A stretch of 64,000 bases of DNA from Patescibacteria group bacterium (GCA_028716485.1 JAQUPS010000005.1:3666-67665), one strand, 5' to 3'. Positions 10,338 through 64,000 are shown, counted from the first letter of the stretch. The notes: generated by a model from the letters alone, not told the origin. Program-made: numbers and translations.

Positions 10338-11741
10338 TTAGAAGTTATTTTCCTTAATCACTTCACCGTTGTTATAGTTGGCGAGGAATTGGGGCGAGAC
10401 ATTGATAATGTTGGATAATTTATAGCCGAGCTTGACAAGCAGATCAGAAGACATGAACGGTCGTTTAACTCCGCCGGCAATCAGATAGATAGCCGGAGAG
10501 TTCGAAGATTTCAAGAGTTCGCCGTCGCCGAAGAGTATCGGGTCGGTAGTCGGGTATTGAGCCAATTCCGCGGCGGCAGCCTTAATAATTTTTTTGTTTT
10601 TAAATTTGTTCGTGAGCACGGCCTTGTCGGGGATGGGGGCTTTTTTGCCTTCGTACACCCAATAAACTCCGCCGGTCTTGCTGTCTTGCAGCAGGGCGCC
10701 GGCCGGATAAGTCGAAGTGGCAGTCAGGGGAACGCCTTCGGGATACGAATTTATATCATTCCAGCCGGCGGCCACGACTTCCGCCGGGTTGTAGCCGAAT
10801 TTCTTGAAGACAGCCTTGGAAGTGAAGCCGCGCTTCTGGTCGTCCACCAAAAGATAAACCGTACCGCGCGGGGAACGGATTAAAGAATAATTGGAAAATC
10901 TGATCGGCGTGCTGGTTCCGAATTTATCCATATCGGCTTTTTCGACCGTAATTATTTTATTAATATTGAATCTTGACGCCAGGACGCTCGGAGAACTAAA
11001 GGCTCTTTTTTTGCCGTCTTGGATCAGCCAAACTGTTTTATCGCCTTTGATCTGCAAAAGCGAACCGTCCGGATAATTGCGGGCGAAATATTTTTGCCAG
11101 AGCGTGTAGAAATTATAATTGCCGTTAAAGACGTGCGGCGTGTAATTATATAAAGCGGCCGTGGCGAGATTGTAAGGCGTGACCAGCGAAGAAGGAGGAT
11201 TGTTATACGCCGAGCAGGTATTATTGAAAGTATAAGTATTGCCCGGGCGATAGCCATATTCAAAGGGGTTCACCATATAATCATAAAATTGCAGGGTGGC
11301 GCTGTTGATTTGTTTCCAAAATCCTTGCCAGCGCGAGTTGCAGCCGCCGCCGTCGGGACAGCCATAGCCCGTGGCCCAATCAAGGCTCCCCTGGGACGGA
11401 TTGGGATCTTCGATCAATCCTTGTTCTTTTTGCAAAAGCACCAGCACGAATCGGGGACTGATCTTGTTGGCCTGACAGACCTCATAGATGGCTTGAGCCG
11501 CGGTTTCACAGACGCCGGTATTGGGATTGGTGACGGTATAAGCGGCCAGATAGCTGCCTTTGCTTTGCAGAAAATTCTGGATATCCTGGGCATCCATTGC
11601 GTTATAATTAAAAATTTCCGCATCACTGATGATGTAATTCGGGTCAAAATCCGGCCGGATGTCCTGCGCCAAAGTTGTTCGGGACAGGCCAAAAACGGCT
11701 ATTATAGATAAGATGACGGCCAAGAGATGTATTTTTTTCAT
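10338..11741 (-). CDS. secreted hypothetical protein (possible cell-wall-binding/hydrolase-like N-domain)
   Basis: Signal peptide MKKIHLLAVILSIIAVFGLSRTTLA. The functional assignment is weak. Confidence 0.5.
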   Translation of the reverse strand: MKKIHLLAVILSIIAVFGLSRTTLAQDIRPDFDPNYIISDAEIFNYNAMDAQDIQNFLQSKGSYLAAYTVTNPNTGVCETAAQAIYEVCQANKISPRFVLVLLQKEQGLIEDPNPSQGSLDWATGYGCPDGGGCNSRWQGFWKQINSATLQFYDYMVNPFEYGYRPGNTYTFNNTCSAYNNPPSSLVTPYNLATAALYNYTPHVFNGNYNFYTLWQKYFARNYPDGSLLQIKGDKTVWLIQDGKKRAFSSPSVLASRFNINKIITVEKADMDKFGTSTPIRFSNYSLIRSPRGTVYLLVDDQKRGFTSKAVFKKFGYNPAEVVAAGWNDINSYPEGVPLTATSTYPAGALLQDSKTGGVYWVYEGKKAPIPDKAVLTNKFKNKKIIKAAAAELAQYPTTDPILFGDGELLKSSNSPAIYLIAGGVKRPFMSSDLLVKLGYKLSNIINVSPQFLANYNNGEVIKENNF

Positions 11742-11976: not shown

Positions 11977-12005
11977 TTGACGCTGATTTTTTTTAGGTGT
12001 ATAAT
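11977..12005 (+). promoter_or_regulatory. sigma70 promoter of nrdR-nrdD-nrdG
   Basis: TTGACG (11977-11982), 17 nt, then TATAAT (12000-12005) preceded by TG. Confidence 0.65.
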
Positions 12006-12016
12006 ATAATTAGATA

Positions 12017-49580: not shown

Positions 49581-50852
49581 ATGTTGGATATAAAATACAT
49601 CCGCGAACATAAGGAGGAGGTAAAAAAGAACTGTGAAAACAGGTTGTCTTCGGCAAACGTCGATGAACTTTTAAAGCTTGATGAACAGCGCCGCAAGATT
49701 ATCGGCGAAATCGACTCTTTGCGTACCGAACGGAACCAAGGTTCCAAAGGCAAGCCGAGCCCGGAAGAAATAGAGGCTATGAAGCAGAAGAGGGTCAGGA
49801 TCGGAGAAATGGAAGCGGAATTGGCAAAAATCGAGGAAAAATATAACGAAGAACTTTTCAAGGTGCCGAATCTTACGCATCCGGACGTGAAGGCGAGCAA
49901 AAACGAAGATGATAATCCGGTTTTGGAAATTTTCAAGGAGCCGGCCAAATTTGATTTTGAACCGAAGGATCATGTTCAGCTATCCGAGGCGCTTGATCTG
50001 ATCGATTTCAACCGCGCCGCGGAAGTTTCCGGCGCCAAATTCTATTATTTAAAGAATGAACTGGCGCTTTTGGAATTCGCTTTGATCCAATATGCCTTGG
50101 AAATTCTATATCAGAAAGGTTTTACGCCGATCACCACGCCGGATTTGGCCAAGCAGGAAGTTTTGAAGGCCATGGGTTTTAATCCAAGAGGGGAGTCGAC
50201 CCAGATTTATAACATTGAGAATTCGGATTTATCCCTGATCGGCACGGCGGAAATTACCATGGGCGGCTATCATCGCGGCGAAGTTTTATCCGAAGCCGAG
50301 CTGCCGAAAAAATACGCGGCAGTCTCTCATTGCTTCCGCACCGAAGCCGGCAGCTATTCCAAATTTTCCAAAGGGATTTTCCGCGTCCATCAGTTCACCA
50401 AAATAGAAATGTTCCAATATGTCAGGCCGGAAACTTCCGAAGCGGCGCACCGGGAACTTTTAGAAATCGAGAAAGAAATTTTCAAAGGATTGGATATCCC
50501 TTTCCGCGTCGTTGACCATTGCACGGCCGACCTGGGCGCGCCATCGACCAGGACTTTTGATTTGGAAGCTTGGATGCCGGGCAAGCCCAATAAAGAAGGA
50601 AAGATGGGGGATTGGGGCGAAATCACTTCCACTTCGAACTGCACTGATTATCAGGCTCGCGCTCTCAATATCAAATACAAAAAAGCCGATGGCGATAAAG
50701 AATATGTCCATATGCTCAATGGCACGGCCATTGCCGTCACCCGGGCGATAATCGCCATCTTGGAAAATTATCAGCAAGCTGACGGCAGTATTAAAATCCC
50801 GGAAGTATTGGTGAAATACATGCCCGGCAGAATCACATCCATAAAAAAATAA
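49581..50852 (+). CDS. serS: seryl-tRNA synthetase
   Basis: MLDIKYIREHKEEV, FRTEAGSYSK, GIFRVHQFTKIEMF, LNGTAIAVTRAIIAILENYQ. Confidence 0.93.
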   Translation: MLDIKYIREHKEEVKKNCENRLSSANVDELLKLDEQRRKIIGEIDSLRTERNQGSKGKPSPEEIEAMKQKRVRIGEMEAELAKIEEKYNEELFKVPNLTHPDVKASKNEDDNPVLEIFKEPAKFDFEPKDHVQLSEALDLIDFNRAAEVSGAKFYYLKNELALLEFALIQYALEILYQKGFTPITTPDLAKQEVLKAMGFNPRGESTQIYNIENSDLSLIGTAEITMGGYHRGEVLSEAELPKKYAAVSHCFRTEAGSYSKFSKGIFRVHQFTKIEMFQYVRPETSEAAHRELLEIEKEIFKGLDIPFRVVDHCTADLGAPSTRTFDLEAWMPGKPNKEGKMGDWGEITSTSNCTDYQARALNIKYKKADGDKEYVHMLNGTAIAVTRAIIAILENYQQADGSIKIPEVLVKYMPGRITSIKK

Positions 50853-50854
50853 AT

Positions 50855-51712
50855 ATGCCATTATTCGGCAATTATTCGGGAAAAAGGCGCCAGCCGATCG
50901 ACTACCACGAAAAAAAACTGGAAAATCCTTTTTATAAAAGGCGGGAAAGGATAATATCGCTTGCCGGAATCAAGGGCAAATTAATTATCATCCTCACTGT
51001 CTTAATTTTGATTTTTATCATCTGGTTCATTTTTATCTCGCATTTTTGGGGGATAAAAAAGATTTCCATCTCCGGTGTGGACCAAATGTCCGATACCGAT
51101 GTCCGCAATCTGATCACCGAGCAGATGCATGCGAGGAATTTCATCCTATTTCCCCAGGATAATCTCCTTTTTTTTAATAAAAGAAATTTTGAGAATACGC
51201 TGCAGAAAAAATATCATTTTCAAAAAATCGAAATAAAAGAAGAATGGCCCAACGCGCTGGTGATCAACATTATCAGCAAGCCATTGGCCGGCATCTGGAA
51301 TGAAGGGGATAAATATTATTATATTGATACCGACGGCTACGCGGTGCAGGAAATCAACCCCCTGGATTTGAAAGATAATAAATATCCTTTAATAACCAAT
51401 CTGTCTTCGCTGCGCTTGCGCGGCAATCGGATCGCGGTTGATCCAAGTTATATAAATTTTGCCGTCTTGCTGTACGCGAAATTCGCCCAGGCGATGCCGG
51501 GCGTGAATATCGACCGATTTGTTATCGACGACGAAGTCGATACGCTGAAATTACTGACCCCTGAAGGCCTGAAAATAATTTTTAACACCAAAGACGATAT
51601 CGACAAGCAGTTGAGCAACCTGGCGATTTTAAAAAATCAGAAATTGAAGGATGTTTTTAACAAGCAAAAGCTGATTGACCTCCGTTACGGCGATAAAATT
51701 TATTATCAATGA
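50855..51712 (+). CDS. FtsQ/DivIB-like cell division protein (POTRA)
   Basis: N-terminal TM helix, then ISISGVDQMSDTDVRNLI (POTRA-like). Confidence 0.6.
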   Translation: MPLFGNYSGKRRQPIDYHEKKLENPFYKRRERIISLAGIKGKLIIILTVLILIFIIWFIFISHFWGIKKISISGVDQMSDTDVRNLITEQMHARNFILFPQDNLLFFNKRNFENTLQKKYHFQKIEIKEEWPNALVINIISKPLAGIWNEGDKYYYIDTDGYAVQEINPLDLKDNKYPLITNLSSLRLRGNRIAVDPSYINFAVLLYAKFAQAMPGVNIDRFVIDDEVDTLKLLTPEGLKIIFNTKDDIDKQLSNLAILKNQKLKDVFNKQKLIDLRYGDKIYYQ

Positions 51713-51734
51713 CATAAGTTAACCAAATAATCAT

Positions 51735-51893
51735 ATGAGCAATGAATCAACCGAAAAAATATTCAAATTTGTTTTTTTTCTCGCGGTGATTGTCTTCCTG
51801 ATCTTGGTTATCGGAATTTTTCTCCTACTGGTGAAGTTTTCGCTGAATTTCACTCCGGTGATCCATATTTTGGGCGTGACCATGACCAATTAG
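51735..51893 (+). CDS. small membrane protein, hypothetical (52 aa)
   Basis: MSNESTEKIFKFVFFLAVIVFLILVIGIFLLLVKF... Hand-translated; below the ORF-track cutoff. Confidence 0.35.
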   Translation: MSNESTEKIFKFVFFLAVIVFLILVIGIFLLLVKFSLNFTPVIHILGVTMTN

Positions 51894-52290
51894 CCGCCTA
51901 TCCTTAAAATTTTACCGAATTTGGGTGTTTGTGATACTCAAAAAGAAAAAACCTTTAAAATAGGCCAGTGCAGAGGTTTTTAGCTTAATTTAGTGCTAAT
52001 ATTAGCTATTTTATTAGTATTATGATCAATCAATCTGGCAATGATTAGCCGCCTTTTTAAAAAAAATTATTTATCGGCCGACAAGAGCGAGAAGTGAAAA
52101 AAATTTTGCCGTAAATAAAAAATAATTTTTAAAAAATAAATTTTTTTGGCATCAAATACAAGGGCAAGGAGAAGATGACAACAGAATGAACGATTTAACG
52201 AGAAACTTTAAAAGAGGCCTTTTGTTATAGCTACTACTTCGCTTAATCTACACTAATATAAGCCAAATACTTCTTTAAAAAGCCCCCTAC

Positions 52291-52322
52291 TTTTCACCCT
52301 TGATTTTATTGGGTGAAAAAAA
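52291..52322. terminator. bidirectional hairpin
   Basis: TTTTCACCC-ttgattttatt-GGGTGAAAAAAA. Confidence 0.55.
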
Positions 52323-52341
52323 TTAAACAATTAAGGCAAAA

Positions 52342-52369
52342 AGCTCGACGTAAAAGGTCGGGCTTTTTT
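52342..52369 (+). terminator. intrinsic terminator
   Basis: AGCTCGAC-gtaaaag-GTCGGGCT (8 bp, one G.T pair) followed by T6. Confidence 0.7.
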
Positions 52370-52392
52370 GTATCTCTTTAATTTGCATTAAA

Positions 52393-52417
52393 ACCCGGCC
52401 GAAAGGTCGGGTTTTTT
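52393..52417 (+). terminator. intrinsic terminator (GAAA tetraloop)
   Basis: ACCCGGCC-gaaa-GGTCGGGT followed by T6. Confidence 0.7.
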
Positions 52418-52460
52418 CGTATGTTCGACACATTAAATCAGTAATGTCAACGACAAAAAT

Positions 52461-52634
52461 ATGCAAAAAAACGATGTCTTCAACGGTAATTTTGGCATTA
52501 CCCCTGAGGGCAAGGAAGCAAGAAACGTTCCGATCATCTTCTTCACCGGCGAGGTGGAAGACGAGATCGATGCGGAGAGCGAACAGCACCGCCGCATGAC
52601 CAGCGAACCGGTCCCGGAAAACATTCCGGCTTAA
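52461..52634 (+). CDS. small acidic protein, hypothetical (57 aa)
   Basis: MQKNDVFNGNFGITPEGKEARNVPIIFFTGEVEDEIDAESEQHRRM... Hand-translated. Confidence 0.35.
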   Translation: MQKNDVFNGNFGITPEGKEARNVPIIFFTGEVEDEIDAESEQHRRMTSEPVPENIPA

Positions 52635-52652
52635 AAAATTAGCTAATACCCC

Positions 52653-53096
52653 ATGATTAGCCTCAAGCCAAATTCAACACAAGTACCCAATATCGTCATG
52701 GACGAATGGCTTCCGGATCTAAGCGATACGGAGTTGCGAATCATCTTGATCATCGCCCGCCAAACCACTGGCTGGGGAAAAGAAAGAGATTGGATAACTC
52801 GCCACCTGCTGGCAAAAAAAATAAACAGGGAAGTGAGAATCGTGACTCGAGCCGTCGGAAAATTGGTGAAGCTTGGAATAATTAAAACCTTCAACGAAAA
52901 AGGAATCGAGCTCATCACACCATCGTCTCGGCAGCGCCAAAAAATATACTACGAATTATCAGGTGAGGTTAGGCAAAAATCTTTGTTTGGCGGCGCAAAT
53001 TCAAAACTGTGGAAAAACTGTGCGCGTCAAGGGGATAAAGCGGCATCTGGTGCACTCCAGTTCACCAGCACCAAATGTCCCAATACAAATAAATGA
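52653..53096 (+). CDS. phage replication protein O N-terminal-like (wHTH)
   Basis: VPNIVMDEWLPDLSDTELRIILIIARQTTGWGKERDWITRHLLAKKI... matches the Rep-O N-domain pattern (L...ELRvll.i.R.T.GW.K..DwIs). Confidence 0.55.
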   Translation: MISLKPNSTQVPNIVMDEWLPDLSDTELRIILIIARQTTGWGKERDWITRHLLAKKINREVRIVTRAVGKLVKLGIIKTFNEKGIELITPSSRQRQKIYYELSGEVRQKSLFGGANSKLWKNCARQGDKAASGALQFTSTKCPNTNK

Positions 53097-53142
53097 AAAC
53101 TATTAAAGACAAGATTAATAATAGCTTTCAAAAAACAAAAAA

Positions 53143-53700
53143 ATGCCAATACAAAATTTTAAGCCACTCGTCTGCCAATGCTGCAATACCAAACTGACTT
53201 ACATCCTCCCAATCGACAAAGGATCAACTGATCTCCTAAAAGCAATCTCTATCGCAATACGAAAAAAGGGGATCAATGAAATTCATCTCCGGGACGAAAT
53301 GGAAGTCAGCCTTGATTTAAAAGGAAAAAACGCGAAAGACAGAGCGGCGATGATTCACCAAGCAAACATTAACGGCCATATCGTCAGCAACCAAACAGGA
53401 AATCTTAGCAGACCAAAGCGGCACGGATTAATCGCCCCCGTAGCCGGGGCGCAGGATGGCACCTACTGCCTGACACGCAAAGGAGCGGCATATCTCCGGG
53501 GAGATCGAATCCCAAAATACGCGATCATCGACAAAGTCAAAGGCAAGCAGGTCGGATACTTTGAAGAATCGACAGAAACCTGCACAGTCAATGATTTTCT
53601 CGATCCGGACTGCCCATACTGGGAGATGATCAACTTCGACGTCGTTGATAAAAAAATAATTCTGATCGTCGGTAACCACGTTCAAGCAAAGCTTTTATAA
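53143..53700 (+). CDS. hypothetical phage protein
   Basis: 185-aa ORF with an N-terminal CQCC pair. No family recognised. Confidence 0.45.
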   Translation: MPIQNFKPLVCQCCNTKLTYILPIDKGSTDLLKAISIAIRKKGINEIHLRDEMEVSLDLKGKNAKDRAAMIHQANINGHIVSNQTGNLSRPKRHGLIAPVAGAQDGTYCLTRKGAAYLRGDRIPKYAIIDKVKGKQVGYFEESTETCTVNDFLDPDCPYWEMINFDVVDKKIILIVGNHVQAKLL

Positions 53701-53761
53701 AAATTAAATCCAGCTCAAAAATTATTCCTCCCCATGGAAAATTCACGAGCTCCCCAAAGTT

Positions 53762-55054
53762 ATGACAATGCAACTTAGAAAGGCTGAGCGCAAGCAAGCA
53801 AAGCTTCGTATCAGCATGGCTGGGCCGTCCGGATCAGGCAAAACCTATTCCGCGCTACTCTTAGCCAGAGGCTTAACCGACAGCTGGGATAAAATCGCCC
53901 TGATCGATACAGAAAATAAGCGCGGCGACCTATACAGCCAGCTGGGCGATTACAACATCATCACCCTAGAAGCCCCATTCTCCCCGGAACGCTTCATCGA
54001 AGCGATTAAGTCCTGTGAGCTCGCCGGTATGGAAGTAATCATCATCGACAGCTCGTCGCACGAATGGGAGGGAGCGGGAGGATGCCTGGAGATCAACGAG
54101 AAACTTGCCCAGACCAAATTCAAAGGCAACACCTGGGCCGCCTGGAGCGATACCACTCCCCGGCACCAGAAATTCATCTCCGCTATAATTGCCTCCCCAT
54201 GCCACATCATCACGACGATGAGATCAAAGACCGACACGATTCAAACCGAGGACAAGAAGATCAAAAAAGTCGGCCTCAAAGAAATTCAGCGCGAAGGATT
54301 CGAATACGAGATGACCGTCAGCTTCAACATCGATCGCGAAACCCACTACGCGATGGTCGGCAAGGACAACACCCAGATCTTCAACGACGGAGAACCTTTT
54401 AAAATCGGCGTCGAGCACGGACAGAAGATTCGGACCTGGAACGAGGGAGGAAAGATAAACACTATCGAACAGAAGCGCGAGATCATGCGCCAGCTGGAAA
54501 GAATCGGATTGAACACCACCGACAAAGCGCAGATCGAAGCGGATATCACCGACCAAACCGGCCTGGCGCTCATCGAAAAGAATTATTCCGCGATCATCGA
54601 CAAATTAAAAACCATCAGACCGATTGAGGAGCAAATCGCTGCAGCTAAGCCTGCCGCTACAATCGAGCCGGACCCGGTTATTCCTCCCCAGGAAGAAGCC
54701 GGGGAGCCGGAGCCGACAGTTGAGCCGGAGAAGACCCAGGACGAACTAAAAGAAGAATTGGGGCTTAATACGCCCGCCGAGCCGACTGTCCCGGGAGATC
54801 CAGCCTTCAACGCCATTCTCACCGGCAACAAGTCAGAAAAAAAGCAGAGCAAGATGGGCGATGAAAAAAAAGCGGGAGCGGCAAAGATCTCGATCATCAG
54901 AAAATTAGCGCAGCAGAAACAGAACCTTGCTGATGATGCCGGCATTATTTCCTACATCGCTTTTATTCACAACATCGAGGTGGCAATCCTCGAAGATCTG
55001 ACGACCGGGCAGGCTGACAAGATCTGGAAAGACCTCGTCAACCAGAAAGTATAA
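53762..55054 (+). CDS. phage AAA/RecA-like ATPase (Sak4/AAA_24-like)
   Basis: Walker A MAGPSGSGKTYSAL and Walker B VIIIDSSSHEW, with a long acidic/proline-rich C-terminal extension. Confidence 0.7.
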   Translation: MTMQLRKAERKQAKLRISMAGPSGSGKTYSALLLARGLTDSWDKIALIDTENKRGDLYSQLGDYNIITLEAPFSPERFIEAIKSCELAGMEVIIIDSSSHEWEGAGGCLEINEKLAQTKFKGNTWAAWSDTTPRHQKFISAIIASPCHIITTMRSKTDTIQTEDKKIKKVGLKEIQREGFEYEMTVSFNIDRETHYAMVGKDNTQIFNDGEPFKIGVEHGQKIRTWNEGGKINTIEQKREIMRQLERIGLNTTDKAQIEADITDQTGLALIEKNYSAIIDKLKTIRPIEEQIAAAKPAATIEPDPVIPPQEEAGEPEPTVEPEKTQDELKEELGLNTPAEPTVPGDPAFNAILTGNKSEKKQSKMGDEKKAGAAKISIIRKLAQQKQNLADDAGIISYIAFIHNIEVAILEDLTTGQADKIWKDLVNQKV

Positions 55055-55097
55055 ACAGACTAAAATCGTTAAACATTAAACAAAAATAAAAAAAAAT

Positions 55098-55607
55098 ATG
55101 AATCAGCTTAGAAATTCAAAAGGCAGATTCGCAAAAAATAAAATATCTATTTGCTTTTTGATAATGATTTCGGTCATGACCATTATGGCCTGGGCCGGAA
55201 TGCAAGAATCTAAAAAATACACGCGCGCGATAGTTCAGGAACCGGAAAAAGTCGCCGTTGCGATGATCAATCACTTGCCGGCAAGCAGCAATGCGCCGGT
55301 CAAACAGATCATCGTCAATGTCGCCGGTAAGAGAAAATTCAAATACACCGATTATTTAGTCCGCTTGTCTTATTGTGAAAGTCGCTTCGACGTGACGAGG
55401 ACTAATGACAACGGAGAATTTGGAATCGACCGAGGACCTTTCCAGATCAATAATTTCTTTCACCCGGAAGTGAATGACAAGCAGGCCAGGGATGTGATAT
55501 TCGCCACCAACTGGACCATTGACATGATCAACGCGGGGAGGCAGCACGAATGGGCTTGCGACAAATTGATCAAGGGAAAGCTGAATTATATCGCGATGAA
55601 TAAATAA
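55098..55607 (+). CDS. lytic transglycosylase (SLT-domain) lysin with N-terminal signal-anchor
   Basis: TM helix ISICFLIMISVMTIMAWAG. Catalytic region LSYCESRFD...GIDRGPFQIN. Confidence 0.65.
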   Translation: MNQLRNSKGRFAKNKISICFLIMISVMTIMAWAGMQESKKYTRAIVQEPEKVAVAMINHLPASSNAPVKQIIVNVAGKRKFKYTDYLVRLSYCESRFDVTRTNDNGEFGIDRGPFQINNFFHPEVNDKQARDVIFATNWTIDMINAGRQHEWACDKLIKGKLNYIAMNK

Positions 55608-55684
55608 TTTTGGCCGGCGCTGCGGGGAGAATGAGATCGGGTAGCTGCAGCACGATCCCCGCCATCGCCGGCGAATTGAAAGAT

Positions 55685-56149
55685 ATGCAATTAAAAGATC
55701 AAGTCGTTTCCCTGGAACTGTCGAAGCGCTTTAAAAAATTAGGATTTAAGCGGGATAGTTTATTTGCTTATTACAGAAATGCTGGAATTTGGCACGACGC
55801 CATCGTTGATATGGGAATGTACAAAGACGTCGACGATGATTTTAAAGAAGCAAAATTACTTCCAGCCTATACCGTCGCTGAGTTAGCACAGATTATTCCG
55901 GACAAATTGGTTGACGGAAAATATCATTTTCACATCTACAGACTTCCCGAGTGGCTCAAAGAAAACGATTACAAAATGAAAGATGGCTGGGCGTGCGGAT
56001 ACGAAGTTTATGACTGGGATCAAATGTCTTGCCGCCATTACTGGGGAGGATGGTTTGTCTGGAAACATTCTGAAAAATTGGCAGATGCTATGGCTCTATT
56101 GCTTGAGTATCTGGCTAAAGTGAATTTAATTAACCCGGCCGAATTTTAG
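55685..56149 (+). CDS. hypothetical phage protein
   Basis: The ORF is taken from ATG 55685 (MQLKDQVVSLELSKRFKKLGF...). Confidence 0.45.
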   Translation: MQLKDQVVSLELSKRFKKLGFKRDSLFAYYRNAGIWHDAIVDMGMYKDVDDDFKEAKLLPAYTVAELAQIIPDKLVDGKYHFHIYRLPEWLKENDYKMKDGWACGYEVYDWDQMSCRHYWGGWFVWKHSEKLADAMALLLEYLAKVNLINPAEF

Positions 56150-56169
56150 AGCCGGATCATAACAAAAAT

Positions 56170-56301
56170 ATGGCTACGAAAATGACTGAGAAGAAAATCG
56201 CGAAAATTAAAGCGCTCAGAAAACAAAAATTGAGCGAGCGCGCTATCGCCAAGAAGGTCGGTTGCTCGCGCAGCGCGGTGAATTACCAGTTGAATAAGTA
56301 G
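56170..56301 (+). CDS. small HTH protein (43 aa)
   Basis: MATKMTEKKIAKIKALRKQKLSERAIAKKVGCSRSAVNYQLNK has a resolvase-type HTH pattern. Hand-translated. Confidence 0.45.
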   Translation: MATKMTEKKIAKIKALRKQKLSERAIAKKVGCSRSAVNYQLNK

Positions 56302-56509
56302 GTTATTACAATTTGAGGATTCCAAATTTGTGTCTGGCCCTTTACGGGGCCAGCAACAAGCCGAGAATCAAGGTGGTCATCAATCCGCAGCCCTCCTTCG
56401 GATAATTGATCAACCAAGCGCGCCGCGTAAGATCGGCAGCGCTGCCGCCGGGGTCGTCAGACAACAGCGTTCCTTGATCGGGCTTCTTAAAAATAATCGA
56501 TTCAAATAA

Positions 56510-56797
56510 ATGAGCGAGCAGACAGTTTACTGGAAGCGAAAATTTAACAAAGGCCGCCAGGCGATCAAAAAATTAAAGCAGGAAGGATTTGGAGAAATTT
56601 ATCAGATTGAAGAAGGATCCGGCTTTGATTTGCTCGCCATTAAGAACGACGAGATCAGACTGATCCGGATCGTCTGGGAAAATCCGGGCGATGCCTACAA
56701 CCAGGAAGAAGACGGCCCGGTCAAGAAAGAAATCTGGCATTTCCCGCACCGGGCGATGCAACCTAAAATCTTTGAACTTAACAAGGTAATTAAATAA
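56510..56797 (+). CDS. hypothetical phage protein (possible PD-(D/E)xK-like)
   Basis: 95 aa. GFDLLAIKNDEIRLIRIV is weakly reminiscent of endonuclease-fold proteins. Confidence 0.35.
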   Translation: MSEQTVYWKRKFNKGRQAIKKLKQEGFGEIYQIEEGSGFDLLAIKNDEIRLIRIVWENPGDAYNQEEDGPVKKEIWHFPHRAMQPKIFELNKVIK

Positions 56798-56815
56798 ATT
56801 TTAGTCCGGGCGATT

Positions 56816-58213
56816 TTGTCGCGCGAACTAAGCAACAAAGCTATGAAAACGCAAGAGCTTAAAAACATCGCGGTCGCTGATTGCTTCCTGTCGAAGACCA
56901 ATACGGCCGGCAGAAACAAGGGCACCGACTTTGACGAGCTGGTCGCCAGTGTCAAAGAAAAGGGCGTGCTCACTCCCATTCTGGTGCGTGCGAAAGAAGG
57001 AAAATCAAAACCGGCCTGGGAAGTTATTGCCGGCAATCGCCGCTGGGCTGCTGCCAAAGAGGCTGGCCTGAAAGAGATCCCGGCGCAGATTGTGGAAATG
57101 ACTGACGAAGAAGCGCGCGAAGCGCAGATCGTCGAGAATCTGCAGCGAGCCGATTTGCACCCGATTGATGAAGCTGAATTATTCGTGAAACTAGTCAAGA
57201 CAGCCGACGACTTTAAAGTGCTTGGCGCGAAGCTTGGAAAGAGCGAGGCATACATCCGCAACAGAATCATGCTTCTTAATTTGGCGGCTGAAGTTCAAAA
57301 GGCTTATCGGGATGGAAGTTTGAACGATGGCCACGCCTTGGAAATATCCAGGCTTACGCCGGGAGATGATCAGCATAAAGCTTTGAAGTATGTCCAGGAA
57401 AAGCAGAAGTGGGGAAAGGCGGTCAGCGTTAAGGATTTGAAAGAATTTATTGATCAAGAATTTTTTGACGAGCTGAAATTCCAGCCCTGGCTCAAGGACG
57501 AGGAAGCGATGAAAGCGGTCGGGGAGTGTATCGAATGCCCGAAGGACACTAACACTTTATTCGGCGAGGTCAAGGCAGGCGCTTGCACCACGATTAAATG
57601 CTATCGCCGCAAAATGAAGAAATACGTCGATTGGATGAAAGAGAAAACCCCGGGATTGGTTCTCGTGAGCTCCGGATACAATCCAAAGGCTGGAGTGCTG
57701 GGAGAGTTCGATTACGAGAAGGCGAAAAAATCGGATGCGAAAGTAAAATCAGCTTTAGTTGTTGATGGAAAAAATCGCGGCAAAATTATCAACGTCGTTA
57801 TCACTAAGATGCCGGTCAATCAAATGACGGCTGAAGAGAAAAAAGAACACGAAAAAGAACTGGAAAAACAGAGGATTGCCGACGAGAAGCGGGAGGCGGC
57901 CGAGAAAGAAAGAGAGGCGCGCAAAATGGAGGGCGCTTTGAAAAATATCACCTGGCCGATACAGGACAAGCACCTTAATTCCTTGGCAGAGATAGCGATC
58001 AGCCGCGCCGATAACGATGACATGACTGATATTGCGAAACGCTTAAAGCTTGAAGGCAAGTGCGATGAAGATGGGGAATTTGAAGACGTGGAAAAAGTTT
58101 TGCGCGGATACTGGGAGAAAGCGGGAGCGCAAGAAAAATTGAGGCTTATTTTTGAGCTCTTCCTCGGCACGCTGTGGGGAGATGCCAGAAATAAAGTCAT
58201 CAAGTCTTTATAA
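56816..58213 (+). CDS. ParB-like nuclease domain protein
   Basis: VIAGNRRWAAAKEAGLKEIPAQIVEMTDEEAREAQIVENLQRADLHPIDEA. Confidence 0.8.
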   Translation: MSRELSNKAMKTQELKNIAVADCFLSKTNTAGRNKGTDFDELVASVKEKGVLTPILVRAKEGKSKPAWEVIAGNRRWAAAKEAGLKEIPAQIVEMTDEEAREAQIVENLQRADLHPIDEAELFVKLVKTADDFKVLGAKLGKSEAYIRNRIMLLNLAAEVQKAYRDGSLNDGHALEISRLTPGDDQHKALKYVQEKQKWGKAVSVKDLKEFIDQEFFDELKFQPWLKDEEAMKAVGECIECPKDTNTLFGEVKAGACTTIKCYRRKMKKYVDWMKEKTPGLVLVSSGYNPKAGVLGEFDYEKAKKSDAKVKSALVVDGKNRGKIINVVITKMPVNQMTAEEKKEHEKELEKQRIADEKREAAEKEREARKMEGALKNITWPIQDKHLNSLAEIAISRADNDDMTDIAKRLKLEGKCDEDGEFEDVEKVLRGYWEKAGAQEKLRLIFELFLGTLWGDARNKVIKSL

Positions 58214-58230
58214 AATAATTTTGAACGACC

Positions 58231-58935
58231 ATGTTATCACTCAAAAATTTAATTTTCTTAGATACCGAAACTACTGGCAAGGAAAATGGCCGCCTGGTCC
58301 AGCTGGCGGTGATGAGATACGGCGCGGAAAAGCCGACAACTGAAAACTTTAAACCGGCCGAGCCGATCGGAATCGAAGCGATGGAAGTCCACGGCATCAC
58401 CAACGAAGAAGTCGCCGACCTTGGAATGTTCGAGGCAACCGAAGAAGCTAAAAAAGAGATCTTTAATTCCGTCATCGTCGCGCATAACGCAAAATTTGAT
58501 ATCGGCGTGCTCGCGCGCGAAGGCGTGACGGTCGATAAATACATCGACACGATGCGCGTCGCCCAGCACCTCATAGAGGCTCCTGCCTATCGTCTGCAGT
58601 ACTTGCGCCATTATCTGAAACTGAATGTGCCAAAGACTGCCGCGGCGCACGATGCCGGTGGCGATGTGCTGGCGCTAGTAGAGCTTTTTAAATATCTTTT
58701 CACTAGAACCACATGTAAAGGCAACGCGGGCGAGGAAATAGAAGATGCGGCGCTCAACGAAATGATCGCTTTGAGCCAGAAACCAGTCTTATTAAAAACC
58801 GTTCCGTTTGGAAAGCACAAAGACAAATCGTTCGCGGATGTTGCCCGGACCGATCGGAGTTATCTTGATTGGTTAATTAAACAACCGGACCTGAGCGAAG
58901 ATTTATCCTTCACTTTAAAACATTATTTAAAATAA
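58231..58935 (+). CDS. DEDDh 3'-5' exonuclease with DUF3820-like C-terminus
   Basis: ExoI FLDTETTG, ExoII VAHNAKFDIGVL, ExoIII AAAHDAGGDVLAL. The C-terminus reads GKHKDKSFADV..DRSYLDWL. Confidence 0.8.
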   Translation: MLSLKNLIFLDTETTGKENGRLVQLAVMRYGAEKPTTENFKPAEPIGIEAMEVHGITNEEVADLGMFEATEEAKKEIFNSVIVAHNAKFDIGVLAREGVTVDKYIDTMRVAQHLIEAPAYRLQYLRHYLKLNVPKTAAAHDAGGDVLALVELFKYLFTRTTCKGNAGEEIEDAALNEMIALSQKPVLLKTVPFGKHKDKSFADVARTDRSYLDWLIKQPDLSEDLSFTLKHYLK

Positions 58936-58950
58936 AAAACAAAAAACGCT

Positions 58951-59136
58951 ATGACGGCTCGAATCAGACCAACTGTGCCATATAACGGGATTTATCCTCA
59001 CCGGGAACACCGCTCACCCAAGGGTCGAGATAAGCAGTATCACAAGAAAAAATTTGAGGGCGGAGTGAAGCGGCAAAAAAAAGAAATCATCAAAGAGCTC
59101 GAGTGCGAAGAAGAGCTTAATAATCTTTTAAAATAA
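58951..59136 (+). CDS. small basic protein, hypothetical
   Basis: 61-aa ORF. Confidence 0.35.
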   Translation: MTARIRPTVPYNGIYPHREHRSPKGRDKQYHKKKFEGGVKRQKKEIIKELECEEELNNLLK

Positions 59137-59142
59137 AACGTC

Positions 59143-59605
59143 ATGAACGACCAAGAAAAAGTAGAGTATCTGGCGGGGCTTTTTCGGCAGCGCCAGGAAG
59201 TGGAAGACAAGATTAAGGCGGTTTTGTCCGGGGAAAAAATAAAGATTGTGGTGCCTCTTTCGCCGTCTCAGAAAGCGGCCAGAGCCCAAAAGGTTAAGGG
59301 GGGGGGGCTTAAAAGCAAAAAACGGTGAAGCGAAAATCTGCGACGAGTGCGGCAGGGAACTGAAGCCCGGCCAGTACCTCTGCCACGGATTATGCCCCGC
59401 TTGCTATCAGCGCAGTCGTAAAGGCGGCGGTAAACCCAGGAATAAGGCAACAATGGCCAAGCGGCACGCCCAGGAGCGAGGCGAGGAACGGCAGCGAGGC
59501 TTTAAATACGAATGCGTGGACTGCGGCGAAAAAATAACCAGTACGCTCGACATTGACGAGGTGAAATGCCCCAACAATGAAAATCATACGATGGTGCAGA
59601 AATAA
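59143..59605 (+). pseudogene. Zn-ribbon protein gene interrupted by frameshift at a G10 tract
   Basis: The frame-1 ORF 59143-59328 and the frame-2 ORF (to 59605; CDECGRELKPGQYLCHGLCPACYQR, YECVDCGEK...KCPNNENH) meet at GGGGGGGGGG (59298-59307). A G9 tract would fuse them. Confidence 0.6.
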
Positions 59606-59702
59606 TCAATAACCAAATTAATTTATAGCAAAGCAAGGTCAATTATTCGAGGTATACAATCGTGTCAGCCAGGCCAAAAAAGAAACAAAGGAGCTGAAAG
59701 CG

Positions 59703-59987
59703 ATGTATCGCGACGCTCTTAATAATTCCGGAAGCTATCAAAAAAAGGTGGAGGAAATTAAAAAGCTGCGCGATGAAAAGAAGCAAATTGAGTTAGGCGT
59801 CAAGGAAGAATTTGCCAGCGAGTTCGACAAGCTGGAAATTCTGAACAACGAAATCAAAAACGATCAGCAGCTTTTGTCAGACATCGTTATGAGCCAAGTA
59901 TCCAAGGGTGAAAAAATAGAGCTGGAAGATGAGTATGAGAATAAATTGGAGCCGATATTTTCGGTCAGATTTAAAAAAATTTCTTAA
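59703..59987 (+). CDS. coiled-coil hypothetical phage protein
   Basis: 94-aa K/E-rich ORF. Confidence 0.4.
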   Translation: MYRDALNNSGSYQKKVEEIKKLRDEKKQIELGVKEEFASEFDKLEILNNEIKNDQQLLSDIVMSQVSKGEKIELEDEYENKLEPIFSVRFKKIS

Positions 59988-60164
59988 TTAATTTATTTAT
60001 CTCTCATCCGATGCTCCTTGGTGTCACGAATCTCTAATGCTCTTCAATGGGCTGATCCCCATGCCGGCCCACGGATGCCATATGGCAGAGGATATTAAAG
60101 CATCCTGCATTAATCATCTTTTTTGTCATCGAGGGGCTCCGAATGAGAGATAATCAAAATTTTT

Positions 60165-60443
60165 ATGGACAAAGGTAAAAAAAAGGAGCTCACGCTTCAG
60201 GAAAAAATGACTATCGCCCTGACAAAAAATCCGATTAAACTCCCCACCAGCAAGGAGATGCTTGAGGAGATGATAGTAAGTTCTTTTAAGATCATTGAGA
60301 AAAATAAAACAGTGCTGGAATACGTCGAATCCCTGTTGGCTGAAAATCCGAAAGACAAGATGCGCTTTATCCAAAAGCAAGCAATCGCTGAAGAGATAAA
60401 AAGCGGCGAGCACCACTTGGCTTGGTTGCTCGATAGAATATAA
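60165..60443 (+). CDS. hypothetical phage protein
   Basis: 92-aa ORF. Confidence 0.4.
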   Translation: MDKGKKKELTLQEKMTIALTKNPIKLPTSKEMLEEMIVSSFKIIEKNKTVLEYVESLLAENPKDKMRFIQKQAIAEEIKSGEHHLAWLLDRI

Positions 60444-60464
60444 TTTTAAATTTTTCTGTAATTT

Positions 60465-61154
60465 ATGCGAAAAATACTATACGAATCTGGCCAAAAATTT
60501 AATCGTCTAACTTTTATAAAGGAACTTAAAGAAGTAAAGACGAAAAAAACCGCCTATCGTATGGCTTTGTGGGGTTGTGATTGCGGAAAAAAGGTAAAAC
60601 TAGTCTTGATGAATGTGGTGAGAGGATACACTAAAAGTTGTGGATGTTTTAATAGAGAATTGACAATTGCCAGAAATAAAAATTCGGCGATTCATGGAAT
60701 GACTAAAACTAGATTCTGGAAAATTTGGAGTGGAATAATTTATCGATGCGATCATGACCCCAAATATATTCCGCGTGGAGTATGTGAAAGATGGAGAATT
60801 TTTTTAAATTTTAAGTCTGACATGTACGATAGTTATATTAAACATTACGAAAAATTTGGGAAAAAAGATACTTCAATCGATCGTATAGATAATAGTCTGG
60901 GATATTCTAAAGAAAATTGTAGATGGGCGACACTCAAGGAGCAGTTAAATAATCGGGAAATCACCTTTATGATTGAATTTAGGGGAAAGCGAGAAAATTT
61001 AGAATACTGGTCTAAAAATACCGGAATAAAAAAAGAATTAATTTTTAAACGAATATGGGAACAAAAATGGCCAATAAAAAGGGCATTGGAAACGCCTTCG
61101 CTCAGACCTGCCCGACCGAATATCAAGATCAAGTTGCTCTCGTCCAATACTTAG
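60465..61154 (+). CDS. phage DNA-binding/nuclease-like protein (function unassigned)
   Basis: CDCGKK...CGC Zn-like pairs. GMTKTRFWKIWSGIIYRC...VCERW...SIDRIDNSLGYSKENCRWATLKEQLNNR is a conserved phage motif that I cannot assign securely. Confidence 0.4.
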   Translation: MRKILYESGQKFNRLTFIKELKEVKTKKTAYRMALWGCDCGKKVKLVLMNVVRGYTKSCGCFNRELTIARNKNSAIHGMTKTRFWKIWSGIIYRCDHDPKYIPRGVCERWRIFLNFKSDMYDSYIKHYEKFGKKDTSIDRIDNSLGYSKENCRWATLKEQLNNREITFMIEFRGKRENLEYWSKNTGIKKELIFKRIWEQKWPIKRALETPSLRPARPNIKIKLLSSNT

Positions 61155-61474
61155 AATTAAAAGGGCTCAAATTTTCAAAATTAGCCCAAGAAACATTCAC
61201 GAGAAGCTGGTCGACAAAGATGAAAAATAAGATGAGCGGACTACGAAAAGGAGTTCCGGACATGATGATAATCATTGAGCGTCCTGAATCAGAAAAAGCC
61301 GGTCCGCGAAATAATATCCTGCTTTTTATTGAGCTGAAAAGGAAAATCGGCGGTAAAGTGAGTCAGGAACAAGCCGATTGGATCAATGCGCTAAATAAAT
61401 GTTTTGGAGTCGTTGCTGTTGTTGCGCGTGGATTTGATCACGCCAAGGAAATTATCGATGCATATACTCAATAA
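61067..61474 (+). CDS. VRR-NUC domain nuclease
   Basis: GVPDMMIII...LLFIELKRKIGGKVSQEQADWINAL (PD-(D/E)xK core). Confidence 0.65.
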   Translation: MANKKGIGNAFAQTCPTEYQDQVALVQYLELKGLKFSKLAQETFTRSWSTKMKNKMSGLRKGVPDMMIIIERPESEKAGPRNNILLFIELKRKIGGKVSQEQADWINALNKCFGVVAVVARGFDHAKEIIDAYTQ

Positions 61475-61478
61475 ATTA

Positions 61479-61503
61479 AAAACCGGTTTTCCAGCCGGTT
61501 TTG
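61479..61503 (+). terminator. intrinsic terminator
   Basis: AACCGG-ttttccag-CCGGTT followed by TTG. Confidence 0.5.
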
Positions 61504-61574
61504 TGGGGGATGGTCCAATGGTAAGACGGAAGGTTTTGAGCCTTTTTATCTTGGTTCGAGTCCAAGTCTCCCAG
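61504..61574 (+). tRNA. tRNA-Gln(UUG), phage-borne
   Basis: Hand-folded 71 nt: acceptor TGGGGGA/TCTCCCA with U1-A72 and G73 (Gln identity features); anticodon arm GAAGG-TTTTGAG-CCTTT; T arm CTTGG-TTCGAGT-CCAAG. Confidence 0.8.
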
Positions 61575-61597
61575 CTTTAAAAATTAATTAAATTTTT

Positions 61598-61753
61598 ATG
61601 AGTGGAAAGTCAGAAAAAAAAGTCAGACAGTTAGTCAAAAGAGGTTACGGCGATATGGCGCGGCAGTTTTATGACCACCTCGACGAACGCCGGCCATTCA
61701 TCATCCCGAAATTTATCTGGCGGCCTTTCATTAAGTGGCTGATTTATCTTTAA
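61598..61753 (+). CDS. small hypothetical protein (51 aa)
   Basis: MSGKSEKKVRQLVKRGYGDMARQFYDHLDERRPFIIPKFIWRPFIKWLIYL. Hand-translated. Confidence 0.35.
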   Translation: MSGKSEKKVRQLVKRGYGDMARQFYDHLDERRPFIIPKFIWRPFIKWLIYL

Positions 61754-61757
61754 TCGT

Positions 61758-62306
61758 ATGGCGAGAACCAAAAAAGCCGACGAGGCAGCAAAGAAAAAAG
61801 AAGAGCGAACCCGAGCATTGGCCGAACTGCAAATGCCTGATGACGGCTGGGATGAAGATGATTCCGGGCACGAGAATTATATTAAGCGCGACAAGCGCGG
61901 CAGACCCACCGTAATGACAAAACAGACACTAGATAAACTACGCGTGGCGTTCAAATTTGGCTGTCCGGACGAAGAAGCCTGTATTTATGCGGGTATTGAC
62001 CCACAAACCCTTTACACTTATTGCAAAAAATATCCTGATTTCTCGAGTGAAAAGGAGGAGTTGAAGCAGTCACCGGTTTTGATTGCCCGCAGCACCGTCG
62101 TCAATGCCTTAAAAAGCAGCACTCCTGATGCTTGGGAATATCTTCGCCGCAAGCGCAAGAAGGAATTTGCCGAGGCGAAAATCGAGATCCCTACAGACGA
62201 AACGGTCACGGCCGACGACCTCGAGAAACTTGACCGCGGCGACATCCAGGTGATTGGTGGCGGCAAGAAGCCGGCACCGATCAAGATTAAGAAATTTAAA
62301 AAATAA
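61758..62306 (+). CDS. terminase small subunit-like HTH protein
   Basis: GRPTVMTKQTLDKLRVAFKFGCPDEEACIYAGIDPQTLYTYCKKYPDF. Its position is just upstream of TerL. Confidence 0.5.
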   Translation: MARTKKADEAAKKKEERTRALAELQMPDDGWDEDDSGHENYIKRDKRGRPTVMTKQTLDKLRVAFKFGCPDEEACIYAGIDPQTLYTYCKKYPDFSSEKEELKQSPVLIARSTVVNALKSSTPDAWEYLRRKRKKEFAEAKIEIPTDETVTADDLEKLDRGDIQVIGGGKKPAPIKIKKFKK

Positions 62307-62308
62307 TT

Positions 62309-62581
62309 ATGCTTAGCTTTATTAAAAACCTGCTGCGTACAAACTCCCCGGAGATCCCGCGGCATCAAGCCTATATTCCTCAATCTTGCGCGATGCGCTT
62401 TATCCCGCACATCGGCGAAGAATTTTATTATTTTAAATGGTGCGGCGTTGTAGTTGGCGATATTTGGTGCGATCACAAAAATCAGAAGCAGTTGGTCAGG
62501 CGCGGCATGGCGGCATTCCGCACAGTCGAAGAAGCCAAATCAGCCTACTACAATCACGATTACGATTCATCGATTCAGTAA
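62309..62581 (+). CDS. hypothetical phage protein
   Basis: 90-aa ORF. Confidence 0.4.
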   Translation: MLSFIKNLLRTNSPEIPRHQAYIPQSCAMRFIPHIGEEFYYFKWCGVVVGDIWCDHKNQKQLVRRGMAAFRTVEEAKSAYYNHDYDSSIQ

Positions 62582-62593
62582 CCTGGATATTTT

Positions 62594-62941
62594 ATGATAA
62601 TTGCTTTTGATGTTGATGACACCTTGATCGTCCCAGGCGTAGCGACCGGCTTGCCGTTTGATACTCCCAACTACGAAAATATCGCAATTTTCCACTGGTT
62701 CCAGGCCCAAGGTAATTACATGATCATCTGGTCTGGCGGCGGTTGCGATTACGCGCAGCGCTGGGCGGAAAAGCTTGGACTCTCCCCGGTGGCAATCCGG
62801 GTAAAACAGAAATACGACGATGTCGATATCGCCTTTGATGATTGCGCCGGCGTTGATCTGGCCAAGGTGAACGTCAGAGTGAAGCGGATCAACAACGGCA
62901 AATCGCGCAAAGAGTGGAATGACCACAATAAAATTAAATAA
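62594..62941 (+). CDS. small HAD-like protein (tentative)
   Basis: The N-terminal MIIAFDVDDTLI carries a DxDxT motif. Confidence 0.35.
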   Translation: MIIAFDVDDTLIVPGVATGLPFDTPNYENIAIFHWFQAQGNYMIIWSGGGCDYAQRWAEKLGLSPVAIRVKQKYDDVDIAFDDCAGVDLAKVNVRVKRINNGKSRKEWNDHNKIK

Positions 62942-64000
62942 ATGCAAGTCACCCAAAGAGATCTGGACACGATCCTGAATAAGCGATGGCGGATGGAGCA
63001 CCTCTACAAAATTAAAACGGAAGATGCCAGATTGACTAATTTAAAATTCAACGATGACCAGGAAGTGCTCTGGAATTATTGCGCGAGCAAAGGCCACCGC
63101 GGACTTGAGTCGATAATCCCGAAGGCGCGCAAAAAGGGCGTCTCGACTTACTGGTTAATTTATTATTTAGACGATACTCTTTGGACTCCCAACACGACCA
63201 GCGTGATCCTGGCTCACAAAGAAAAGGATCTGCGCAAACTTTTTAAAATCGTTAAACTCGCTTACAGCAAATGCCCGCAATCAATCAAGTTGGAATGTGG
63301 CAAGACCTGGCATAAGCCGGCGGCGAATTACGACAACGTCAACGAGCTGGCCTTCGGCGATATCAACTCAACAATCTACATCGCCCTGGAAAGCCGCGGC
63401 GATACGCCCAGCAACCTGCACGTCTCGGAAGCGGCGCATATCAAAGACGTTGAGCAGCGCCTCATTCCCACCCTGGCGGCCGTACCGACCAATGGACGGT
63501 CAAATGTTTCGATCGAATCGACTGCCAACGGCGTGGGTGATTGGTTTGAGGAAACCTGCTCGGAATGTTCTGCCGGCCACGGGCCTTATGATATCTTTTT
63601 CTTCGGCTGGTGGACTAAAAAACTGAACTCTATCAAGCCGCCGGCCGACTACGAGCCGAGCGAAGAAGCTCTGCACAAAGCAGGGCTTGTTTTGGCGCAA
63701 TACGGCATCAAACTGAGTCCTGAGCAGCTTTGCTGGTGGGATAAGACGAAGAAGCGCCAGCGCCGCATTATGGATCAGGAAAACCCGACTATCCTGTCAG
63801 ACAGCTTCATGACCTCGTCCGGAATGGTCTTTGACAGTGAGGCAATGCAGAAACTGACTACGCGCAAGCCGCTTTATCGCCGCGCGATTAAGATCGAAGG
63901 CGCGGAAGGCAGGATGGAAACGTTCTATGCTGACATTTACGTCAACCCGATGCCGGGCCGGCGCTACATCCTGGGCGGAGATCCGGCCGAGGGAACCGGC
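62942..64000 (+). CDS. terminase large subunit (3' end outside window)
   Basis: Hand-translated; 353 codons stay open to the window end, and the ORF is absent from the track because no stop falls in the window. Motifs: IIPKARKKGVSTYW (Walker A-like), NLHVSEAAH (Walker B-like), and ILGGDPAEGTG at the start of the nuclease domain. Confidence 0.75.
   Translation, partial: MQVTQRDLDTILNKRWRMEHLYKIKTEDARLTNLKFNDDQEVLWNYCASKGHRGLESIIPKARKKGVSTYWLIYYLDDTLWTPNTTSVILAHKEKDLRKLFKIVKLAYSKCPQSIKLECGKTWHKPAANYDNVNELAFGDINSTIYIALESRGDTPSNLHVSEAAHIKDVEQRLIPTLAAVPTNGRSNVSIESTANGVGDWFEETCSECSAGHGPYDIFFFGWWTKKLNSIKPPADYEPSEEALHKAGLVLAQYGIKLSPEQLCWWDKTKKRQRRIMDQENPTILSDSFMTSSGMVFDSEAMQKLTTRKPLYRRAIKIEGAEGRMETFYADIYVNPMPGRRYILGGDPAEGTG

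Follow-up and report, generated by a model that had tools for sequence, protein, structure and literature searches.

Introduction

The dif site consists of two 11-bp inverted arms around a 6-8-bp centre (~28 bp in all), and linkage of dif to the recombinase gene is described as one hallmark of the single-recombinase XerS and XerH systems (PMC5357621). Chromosomal dif sites also serve as insertion sites for integrative mobile elements exploiting Xer (IMEX), such as CTXphi, VGJphi, TLCphi, the gonococcal genetic island, EludIMEX-1 and the dif-type double-jelly-roll phages of Vibrio, in which a hybrid or degenerate dif with one arm and the centre forms one border, and no integrase lies beside that border (PMC5357621, PMC12715192). 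Here we analyse a 64,000-nucleotide stretch of DNA from Patescibacteria group bacterium (GCA_028716485.1, JAQUPS010000005.1:3666-67665; referred to in its entirety as the window) in which the genome of a tailed phage abuts host DNA downstream of ftsQ. Like the IMEX elements, this phage lies in a chromosomal dif and has a hybrid dif at its visible border with no integrase next to it. Unlike them, it is a tailed double-stranded DNA (dsDNA) phage with terminase and portal genes, the right half of which lies beyond the DNA seen, so that integrase-free status holds for the visible part, and its host belongs to the candidate phyla radiation (CPR) and has a palindromic dif adjoining xer.

Prophages as such are already known from CPR bacteria: a preliminary description of the window, made from the sequence alone, held that few had been characterised, a view outdated by reports of hundreds of temperate Patescibacteria viral operational taxonomic units and prophages (PMC12911398, PMC12455944). 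These elements, from surveys of groundwater metagenome-assembled genomes (MAGs), are likewise of Caudoviricetes type and located inside CPR MAG contigs, and one of the reports mentions neither integrase nor integration site nor Xer (PMC12455944). Unlike for the reported prophages, the left attachment site (attL) is resolved to the base in the case described here. What is new is the site of insertion, a chromosomal dif that forms part of a conserved ftsQ-dif-xer module: in the literature that we searched, there was no tailed-phage integration at dif and no paper that joins Patescibacteria, 'dif site' and Xer. The evidence presented below makes it very probable that a temperate tailed phage of a Caudoviricetes lineage integrated into the chromosome of a Falkowbacteria-like Patescibacterium by a tyrosine-recombinase-type crossover inside dif.

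Results

The host genes upstream in the window encode DnaE, NrdD, FtsW, polysaccharide functions, GreA, LysRS, SerRS and FtsQ. The closest relatives of this region and the FtsQ homologs are from Candidatus Falkowbacteria or the Patescibacteria group, which points to a Falkowbacteria-like Patescibacterium as host and bears out the CPR affiliation proposed in the preliminary description. Two relatives (L028 and L031) are collinear with the window at ~75% nucleotide identity from the polysaccharide genes through ftsQ to a 52-aa membrane open reading frame (ORF; Table 1), copies of which in two further loci (L124 and L066) are 79-87% identical to the L028 copy. Past this ORF, L028, L031 and ~20 further genomes have a short spacer followed by genes for a tyrosine recombinase, an M23 peptidase (opposite strand), L27 and pyrG. 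No homologs of xer, M23, L27 or pyrG were found in the 64-kb window. Of the independent alignments between relatives and the window spacer (more than 20), every one stops at 52252, and rightward of this position no sequence matches any host, which places the host/phage boundary at 52252/52253. The phage block had previously been thought to begin at 51894, ~360 nt too far to the left, as the intervening 51894-52252 aligns to relatives and is host spacer.

The feature that gives this boundary its meaning, and which the preliminary description had not seen, is a dif site. The relatives have in common a 28-bp imperfect palindrome, ACTTCGCTTAA-TCTACA-TTATGCGAAGT, located between the 52-aa ORF and xer (for example at L028 11363-11390), with an 11-6-11 architecture and arms that are complementary at 10 of 11 positions. 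Its reverse complement matches E. coli dif at 19 of 28 bases. The palindrome is conserved between ftsQ and xer in ~20 GTDB/JGI loci (including L028, L032, L033, L036 and L037), and the module order ftsQ, 52-aa ORF, palindrome, Xer recombinase and M23 peptidase recurs in more than 60 related loci. When JGI metagenomes were scanned with the inner 20-mer of the palindrome, 80 loci were recovered (within L058-L137), 42 of which have both ftsQ upstream (median distance 437 bp) and xer downstream (22-1406 bp, median 79). Another 23 have one of the two genes, the other flank being shorter than 0.8 kb in all but one case (L077), and the remaining 15 have neither gene, the site lying in other genomic contexts or having a canonical XerD-type left arm. 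We also considered whether CPR-type dif sites away from ftsQ and xer (L084, L108 and L109) mark mobile elements and rejected this, as they lie among ordinary host genes (ATP synthase, UvrD-like and RecG-like).

GC skew was compared across the palindrome for the loci in which both flanks extend 4 kb or more (n=20). It averaged +0.091 upstream and -0.092 downstream, was higher upstream in all 20 loci, positive upstream in 19 of 20 and negative downstream in 19 of 20. As this switch indicates that the site sits at the replication terminus, we take the palindrome to be the chromosomal dif. The recombinase encoded beside it (~319 aa) is a member of an XerD-named family that comprises more than 3,300 Patescibacteria proteins and is 84-94% identical between loci in which FtsQ is only 40-70% identical, indicating that it is the host Xer; the possibility that the recombinases after ftsQ are mobile-element integrases at a variable hotspot was ruled out because conservation of the L028-type protein exceeds that of FtsQ. 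Two relatives (L031, 11480-11545; L048, ~11140-11180) have another recombinase (29% identical to the L028-type Xer, 62% to each other) together with another palindrome, ACTGAGTATAATATCCCTTACACTCAGT, both in the usual place after ftsQ, from which recombinase and site can be seen to co-vary. In these two loci, dif and xer seem to have been exchanged as a complete cassette, and L031 encodes a second recombinase (264 aa) 0.5 kb downstream.

The near-perfect palindrome and its linkage to xer suggest a single-recombinase Xer system. As in XerS/difSL of streptococci and lactococci and XerH/difH of Helicobacter and Campylobacter, the CPR site is linked to the recombinase gene as a module (PMC5357621) and located at a GC-skew switch. 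Unlike in those systems, it has an 11-6-11 structure in which one arm is the canonical XerC arm (TTATGCG...), the recombinase is XerC/D-like and ~319 aa long rather than ~356 aa, and the module directly follows ftsQ. In several relatives, a second dif half-site (ACTTCGCTTAATAT or ACTTCGCATAATATTGTATAC) lies directly upstream of the xer start codon and may be an autoregulatory Xer-binding site (L028 ~11990-12015, L032 ~2630-2655, L033 ~11985-12010, L036 ~11225-11250 and L057 120-148).

Two further observations concern the contigs on which the module is found. Several Patescibacteria-type ftsQ-dif-xer contigs are titled Gammaproteobacteria, 'Candidatus Nanoarchaeia archaeon' or 'Candidatus Methylomirabilis sp.' (L034, L035, L037, L039-L041, L044-L046, L048, L052, L054, L032 and P0066), which are probably mislabels in third-party MAG submissions. 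Some contigs end close to the site: the 83-kb GTDB contig CAYNAR010000005.1 (L035) stops 2 bp past a complete dif, at 11414, and four JGI contigs (L067, L075, L076 and L126) stop within 35 bp of dif, which may reflect assembly forks at alternative junctions. We rejected such clustering of contig ends as evidence, since ~3-4 were observed against ~1 expected, too weak a difference to use.

The window retains the host left arm (ACTTCGCTTAA, 52236-52246) and the centre (TCTACA, 52247-52252) of dif, intact at 17 of 17 positions, whereas the right arm (52253-52263) is replaced by phage-derived CTAATATAAGC, which shares only 5 of 11 bases with the host arm TTATGCGAAGT. The resulting junction sequence (...TCTACACTAATATAAGCC) thus has the host arm, centre and phage arm expected as the product of a crossover in the central region of dif, a site-specific recombination signature that lends substance to the earlier proposal of an integrated phage. 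Taken alone, attL gives only the right-hand limit of the identity between the phage and bacterial attachment sites (attP and attB). The join was found in three assemblies: the window, GCA_043956575.1, where it is identical, and a Logan contig from SRR22315508 (L024, k=31), which crosses it by 59 nt to 52311. Another Logan contig (L023, SRR22315506; window 50330-52252) stops exactly at 52252, as it would if the de Bruijn graph forked there into an occupied allele that continues with C and an empty one that continues with T; such a fork would suggest that lysogens and non-lysogens co-exist.

Immediately rightward of attL lies a non-coding phage leader with the three consecutive hairpins of the preliminary description (Table 1). 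It is predicted to fold strongly (-50.3 kcal/mol, z = -4.1), one of the hairpins was also detected in a terminator scan, and no part of 52264-52460 has a match in any host relative.

The phage module occupies the + strand from 52253 through the window end, and every substantial ORF in 52461-64000 is on this strand. The uninterrupted array described earlier is therefore real, and its RepO, ATPase, ParB-like, DEDDh exonuclease, VRR-NUC, tRNA-Gln, TerS and TerL (small and large terminase subunits) assignments were all recovered by profile searches, ARAGORN or Rfam (Table 1). For the 'SLT lysin' with signal-anchor, the membrane anchor stands, whereas the lysin assignment is weak (SLT_3 below the Pfam cut-off). 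The gene list had otherwise been sound and had missed the HNH endonuclease gene. The HNH and VRR-NUC ORFs overlap by 100 nt just upstream of the tRNA-Gln and TerS genes (60465-61474), and the placement of HNH next to the terminase is typical of cos-type packaging modules. An Rfam scan of the whole window detected three tRNAs and no other match.

Base composition and codon usage favour a foreign origin of the block, as had been proposed. The correlation of relative synonymous codon usage is 0.96 between the two halves of the host region and 0.70-0.72 between host and phage block, and A-T skew is +0.21 in the phage block (a coding-strand A excess) versus ~0 in the host, with GC content equal on both sides.

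Public data extend the phage beyond the window. The segment 49088-64000 is 100% identical to NCBI contig JBINOC010002845.1 (GCA_043956575.1; 19.4 kb), which spans window-equivalent 49088-68525 and so reaches 4.5 kb past the window end; short Logan contigs from SRR22315506 and SRR22315508 are also identical to the window. The extension encodes the rest of TerL (522 aa in all), a portal protein (PF04860; phrog_2662 1.5e-50), a 273-aa ORF and the start of a signal-peptide protein of at least 582 aa, with no family match for the last two. The block thus contains the TerL and portal genes of a tailed phage (Caudoviricetes), the portal being the kind of downstream structural gene the absence of which, according to the preliminary description, would have refuted an integrated phage. 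The signal-peptide protein (L025 15519-17264, window-equivalent 66780-68525) lies where scaffold or capsid genes would be expected, and its first 46 aa are kept in an IMG/VR relative (L002).

Comparison with phage databases, which the preliminary description had recommended for TerL and the ATPase, revealed relatives chiefly in IMG/VR. TerL is 78% identical to its counterparts in two IMG/VR contigs (L001 and L002) and, at the top among deposited phages, 28-30% identical to annotated TerL of Vibrio and Stx phages. The ATPase has relatives in 16 IMG/VR contigs (38-78% identity) and in Acinetobacter phages (49%). No TerL relatives were found in GTDB genomes, and no RepO relatives in IMG/VR or JGI metagenomes. 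The full-length TerS, TerL and portal share 51-79% identity with those of IMG/VR relatives that run on into the same downstream genes. Among lambda-like temperate phages that encode an integrase, the closest is IMG/VR contig 3300025018_000471 (IMGVR_UViG_3300025018_000471), which shares the order of replication genes, nuclease genes, TerS, TerL and portal and whose TerL and portal are 78-79% identical. The host junction of the window falls where this relative has its integrase gene (int), helix-turn-helix (HTH) gene and non-coding region.

In L027 and L003, the relative that is closest overall and the one whose ATPase is most similar, the replication module is directly preceded by a phrog_1 integrase gene, a small HTH ORF and then 400-470 nt of non-coding DNA with a terminator; at the position of int and HTH, the window phage has the 57-aa ORF and RepO. 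In L027, the gap between int/HTH and the ATPase gene (6640-6800, minus strand) contains a near-consensus promoter (TTGACT-N17-TACAAT) followed by a hairpin-rich segment of ~100 nt and a strong terminator, and may represent attP or encode a phage small RNA. In the window phage itself, searches of the visible block (52253-64000) yielded neither an integrase nor a repressor pair nor a junction tRNA, as noted earlier for its left end, profile searches detected no recombinase gene in the 16.3 kb of phage DNA seen (52253-68525), and the 64-kb window as a whole encodes no tyrosine recombinase.

Table 1. Features at the host/phage junction and in the phage block (window coordinates)
Feature	Coordinates	Strand	Evidence
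Host ftsQ (POTRA-type), last large host gene before the junction	50855..51712	+	Weak PF08478 match; homologs named FtsQ
Host 52-aa membrane ORF downstream of ftsQ	51735..51893	+	Gene call in L019, L028 and L031
Host AT-rich spacer, 52-aa ORF to dif	51894..52235	.	Patchy alignment to L028 and L031; blastn matches up to 52252
Hybrid dif (attL)	52236..52263	+	Comparison of sites across relatives
Phage non-coding leader, three tandem terminator-like hairpins	52264..52460	+	Hairpins at 52291-52319, 52336-52371 and 52390-52415
First phage ORF, 57 aa	52461..52634	+	Gene call in NCBI contig; no family match
Replication initiator, RepO-like N-terminal winged-helix domain	52653..53096	+	PF04492 6.4e-9; phrog_678 4e-19
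185-aa phage protein	53143..53700	+	43% identity to L002 2483-2968 (closest relative)
AAA_24 / RecA-like ATPase	53762..55054	+	PF13479 1.9e-20; phrog_1366 4e-88
Membrane-anchored protein, tentatively lysozyme-like (SLT_3)	55098..55607	+	PF18896 E = 0.002, under Pfam cut-off
ParB-like protein (ParB_N + HTH_ParB)	56816..58213	+	PF02195 5.9e-20; PF17762 3.2e-13; phrog_4715 3e-30
DEDDh 3'-5' exonuclease, RNase_T with ExoX-like C-terminus	58231..58935	+	PF00929 1.3e-14; PF20600 3.6e-9; phrog_192 5e-45
HNH endonuclease	60465..61154	+	phrog_374 3.6e-41
VRR-NUC nuclease	61055..61474	+	PF08774 1.2e-9; phrog_824 2e-24; start uncertain, public gene call = 61262
tRNA-Gln (UUG; anticodon ttg), phage-borne	61504..61575	+	ARAGORN; Rfam RF00005 55.5 bits
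TerS	61758..62306	+	phrog_4102 1.6e-17; 51-53% identity to L001 and L002
TerL, N-terminal 352 aa (up to window-equivalent 64510 in L025)	62942..64000	+	Full protein: phrog_2 1.2e-16, phrog_24361 2.5e-19

Two other features of the host region stand apart from the junction. The palindrome GCTAATATTAGC (window 51995-52006), which occurs once in the window, is conserved together with its flanks in the spacers of L028, L031, L033 and L038 despite diverged surroundings and may be a regulatory element or part of a small RNA. Further upstream, 18999-24368 encodes a 1789-aa surface-type protein with beta-helix, fn3, InlB B-repeat and Listeria-Bacteroides repeat domains, in a segment with a GC content of 0.53-0.55 and GC skew down to -0.27, compared to a GC content of ~0.44 for the host region.

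Discussion

The structure of attL, the synteny of the interrupted module and the tailed-phage gene content together argue for integration inside dif. Several points weigh against this conclusion or limit it. The right junction, the right attachment site (attR) and the last ~20 kb or more of the phage were not recovered through three candidate host Xer proteins (P0187, P0196 and P0184, Logan-only and all from other samples), so whether the phage is complete, has an integrase and regenerates dif is deduced rather than seen. The three assemblies that contain the join may come from the same or related samples, and no Logan contig covers 52312-52774. The genes seen (to 68525) include a single one for virion structure, portal, and none for capsid or tail. 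A dif-like attP is absent from the fetched parts of the IMG/VR relatives, and neither the exact phage-side junction sequence nor the CPR dif 20-mer has a match in IMG/VR; a 17-mer of CPR dif had one match, which lies inside a 599-aa ORF and was judged to be due to chance. Finally, a phage was present at none of ~65 other CPR dif loci, and the integration is thus a single case.

Which recombinase performed the crossover is a separate question. On balance, comparison with the relatives leads us to favour slightly a phage-encoded Xer-like integrase, whose gene would sit at the distant right-hand end of the prophage: since int is located upstream of the replication module in L027 and L003, a visible end without an integrase is what would be expected. 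It is considerably less likely that the phage has no integrase of its own and that, in the manner of IMEX elements, host Xer recombined a dif-like attP consisting of one good arm, a matching centre and one degenerate arm. Such a scenario agrees with the insertion exactly in dif, where homology stops at the boundary between centre and right arm, with an attL that, like difGGI and attP-TLC, diverges in one arm and is conserved in the centre and the remaining arm (PMC5357621), with the lack of a recombinase gene in the 16.3 kb seen and the occurrence of the 57-aa ORF and RepO where relatives have int and HTH, and with host xer directly beside the site in all relatives. However, the same two relatives carry their own integrase near the equivalent position, at least half of the prophage is unseen and the phage-derived arm matches the Xer arm at merely 5 of 11 positions. 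Moreover, dif integration in the searched literature concerns filamentous and tailless phages, with tailed ones not placed there (PMC11630473, PMC12715192), and the tailless dif-targeting phages of Vibrio often carry integrases. The window phage differs from integrase-encoding temperate tailed phages of lambda-like layout in targeting dif rather than a tRNA or protein gene.

A defective remnant or satellite, in which a decayed prophage or phage-inducible island has kept replication and packaging genes and forms no virions, is improbable. No capsid, tail or lysis gene was seen up to 68525, where the public contig ends inside the signal-peptide protein of 582+ aa that has no family match, and dif-integrated elements often form arrays and degrade (PMC12715192). 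Yet the ORFs across 16 kb of the phage block are all intact, tightly packed and on a single strand, the full-length TerS, TerL and portal have relatives that continue into the same downstream genes, and the end of L023 at 52252, if it does reflect co-existing occupied and empty alleles, would suggest recent mobility. That a free phage was merely misjoined to a host contig is very improbable even though CPR-community MAG assemblies are prone to misjoins, a single junction is visible and the per-run Logan contigs are short and leave 52312-52774 uncovered, because the breakpoint falls to the base at the centre edge of a conserved 28-bp recombination site in syntenic position, where a random misjoin would not be predicted, because the shared sequence visible for a misjoin (at most 17 nt) is shorter than usual assembly k-mers, and because the same join is present in GCA_043956575.1 and crossed by the k=31 Logan contig of another run.

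We therefore return to a temperate tailed phage integrated in dif, of which at least 16.3 kb is visible and the full size of which is probably 35-45 kb, judging from a partial 27.5-kb relative contig and the published sizes of Paceibacteria prophages. In the model that we propose, the circular phage would cross over inside the 28-bp (11-6-11) dif that separates ftsQ from the host xer at the replication terminus. The empty attB would consist of the ftsQ-side flank and TCTACATTATGCGAAGT, and the circular attP of the phage left end and TCTACACTAATATAAGCC. Integration would then create, at the far side, an attR composed of the phage left arm, TCTACA and TTATGCGAAGT, a regenerated dif directly upstream of xer, by which the host would keep dimer resolution. 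If the phage is built like its relatives, attP would lie between int/HTH and the three hairpins, and integration would move the integrase gene to the far right end of the prophage. The hairpins would close the preceding operon in the circular phage, and in the prophage they could shield the early genes from ftsQ read-through.

Links between Patescibacteria and their phages are mostly statistical, resting on co-binning, homology or spacer matches, whereas here a base-precise junction at a recognisable recombination site provides a firm host assignment for a phage lineage that is also present in IMG/VR. Independently of the phage, the ftsQ-dif-xer arrangement is a candidate dimer-resolution module and a ready terminus marker in CPR MAGs. 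If the phage has its own integrase, dif would still provide a conserved att target where tRNA genes are few; if it has none, exploitation of Xer would widen from filamentous and tailless to tailed phages. In the most far-reaching version, which we regard as rather unlikely, this would be the first tailed dsDNA phage acting as an IMEX: integrase-free, it would offer a half-degenerate dif mimic to the single Xer of an ultra-small CPR host and regenerate a working dif beside xer. Were this true, ftsQ-dif-xer would be both the dimer resolution system of much of the Patescibacteria and an entry point for phages.

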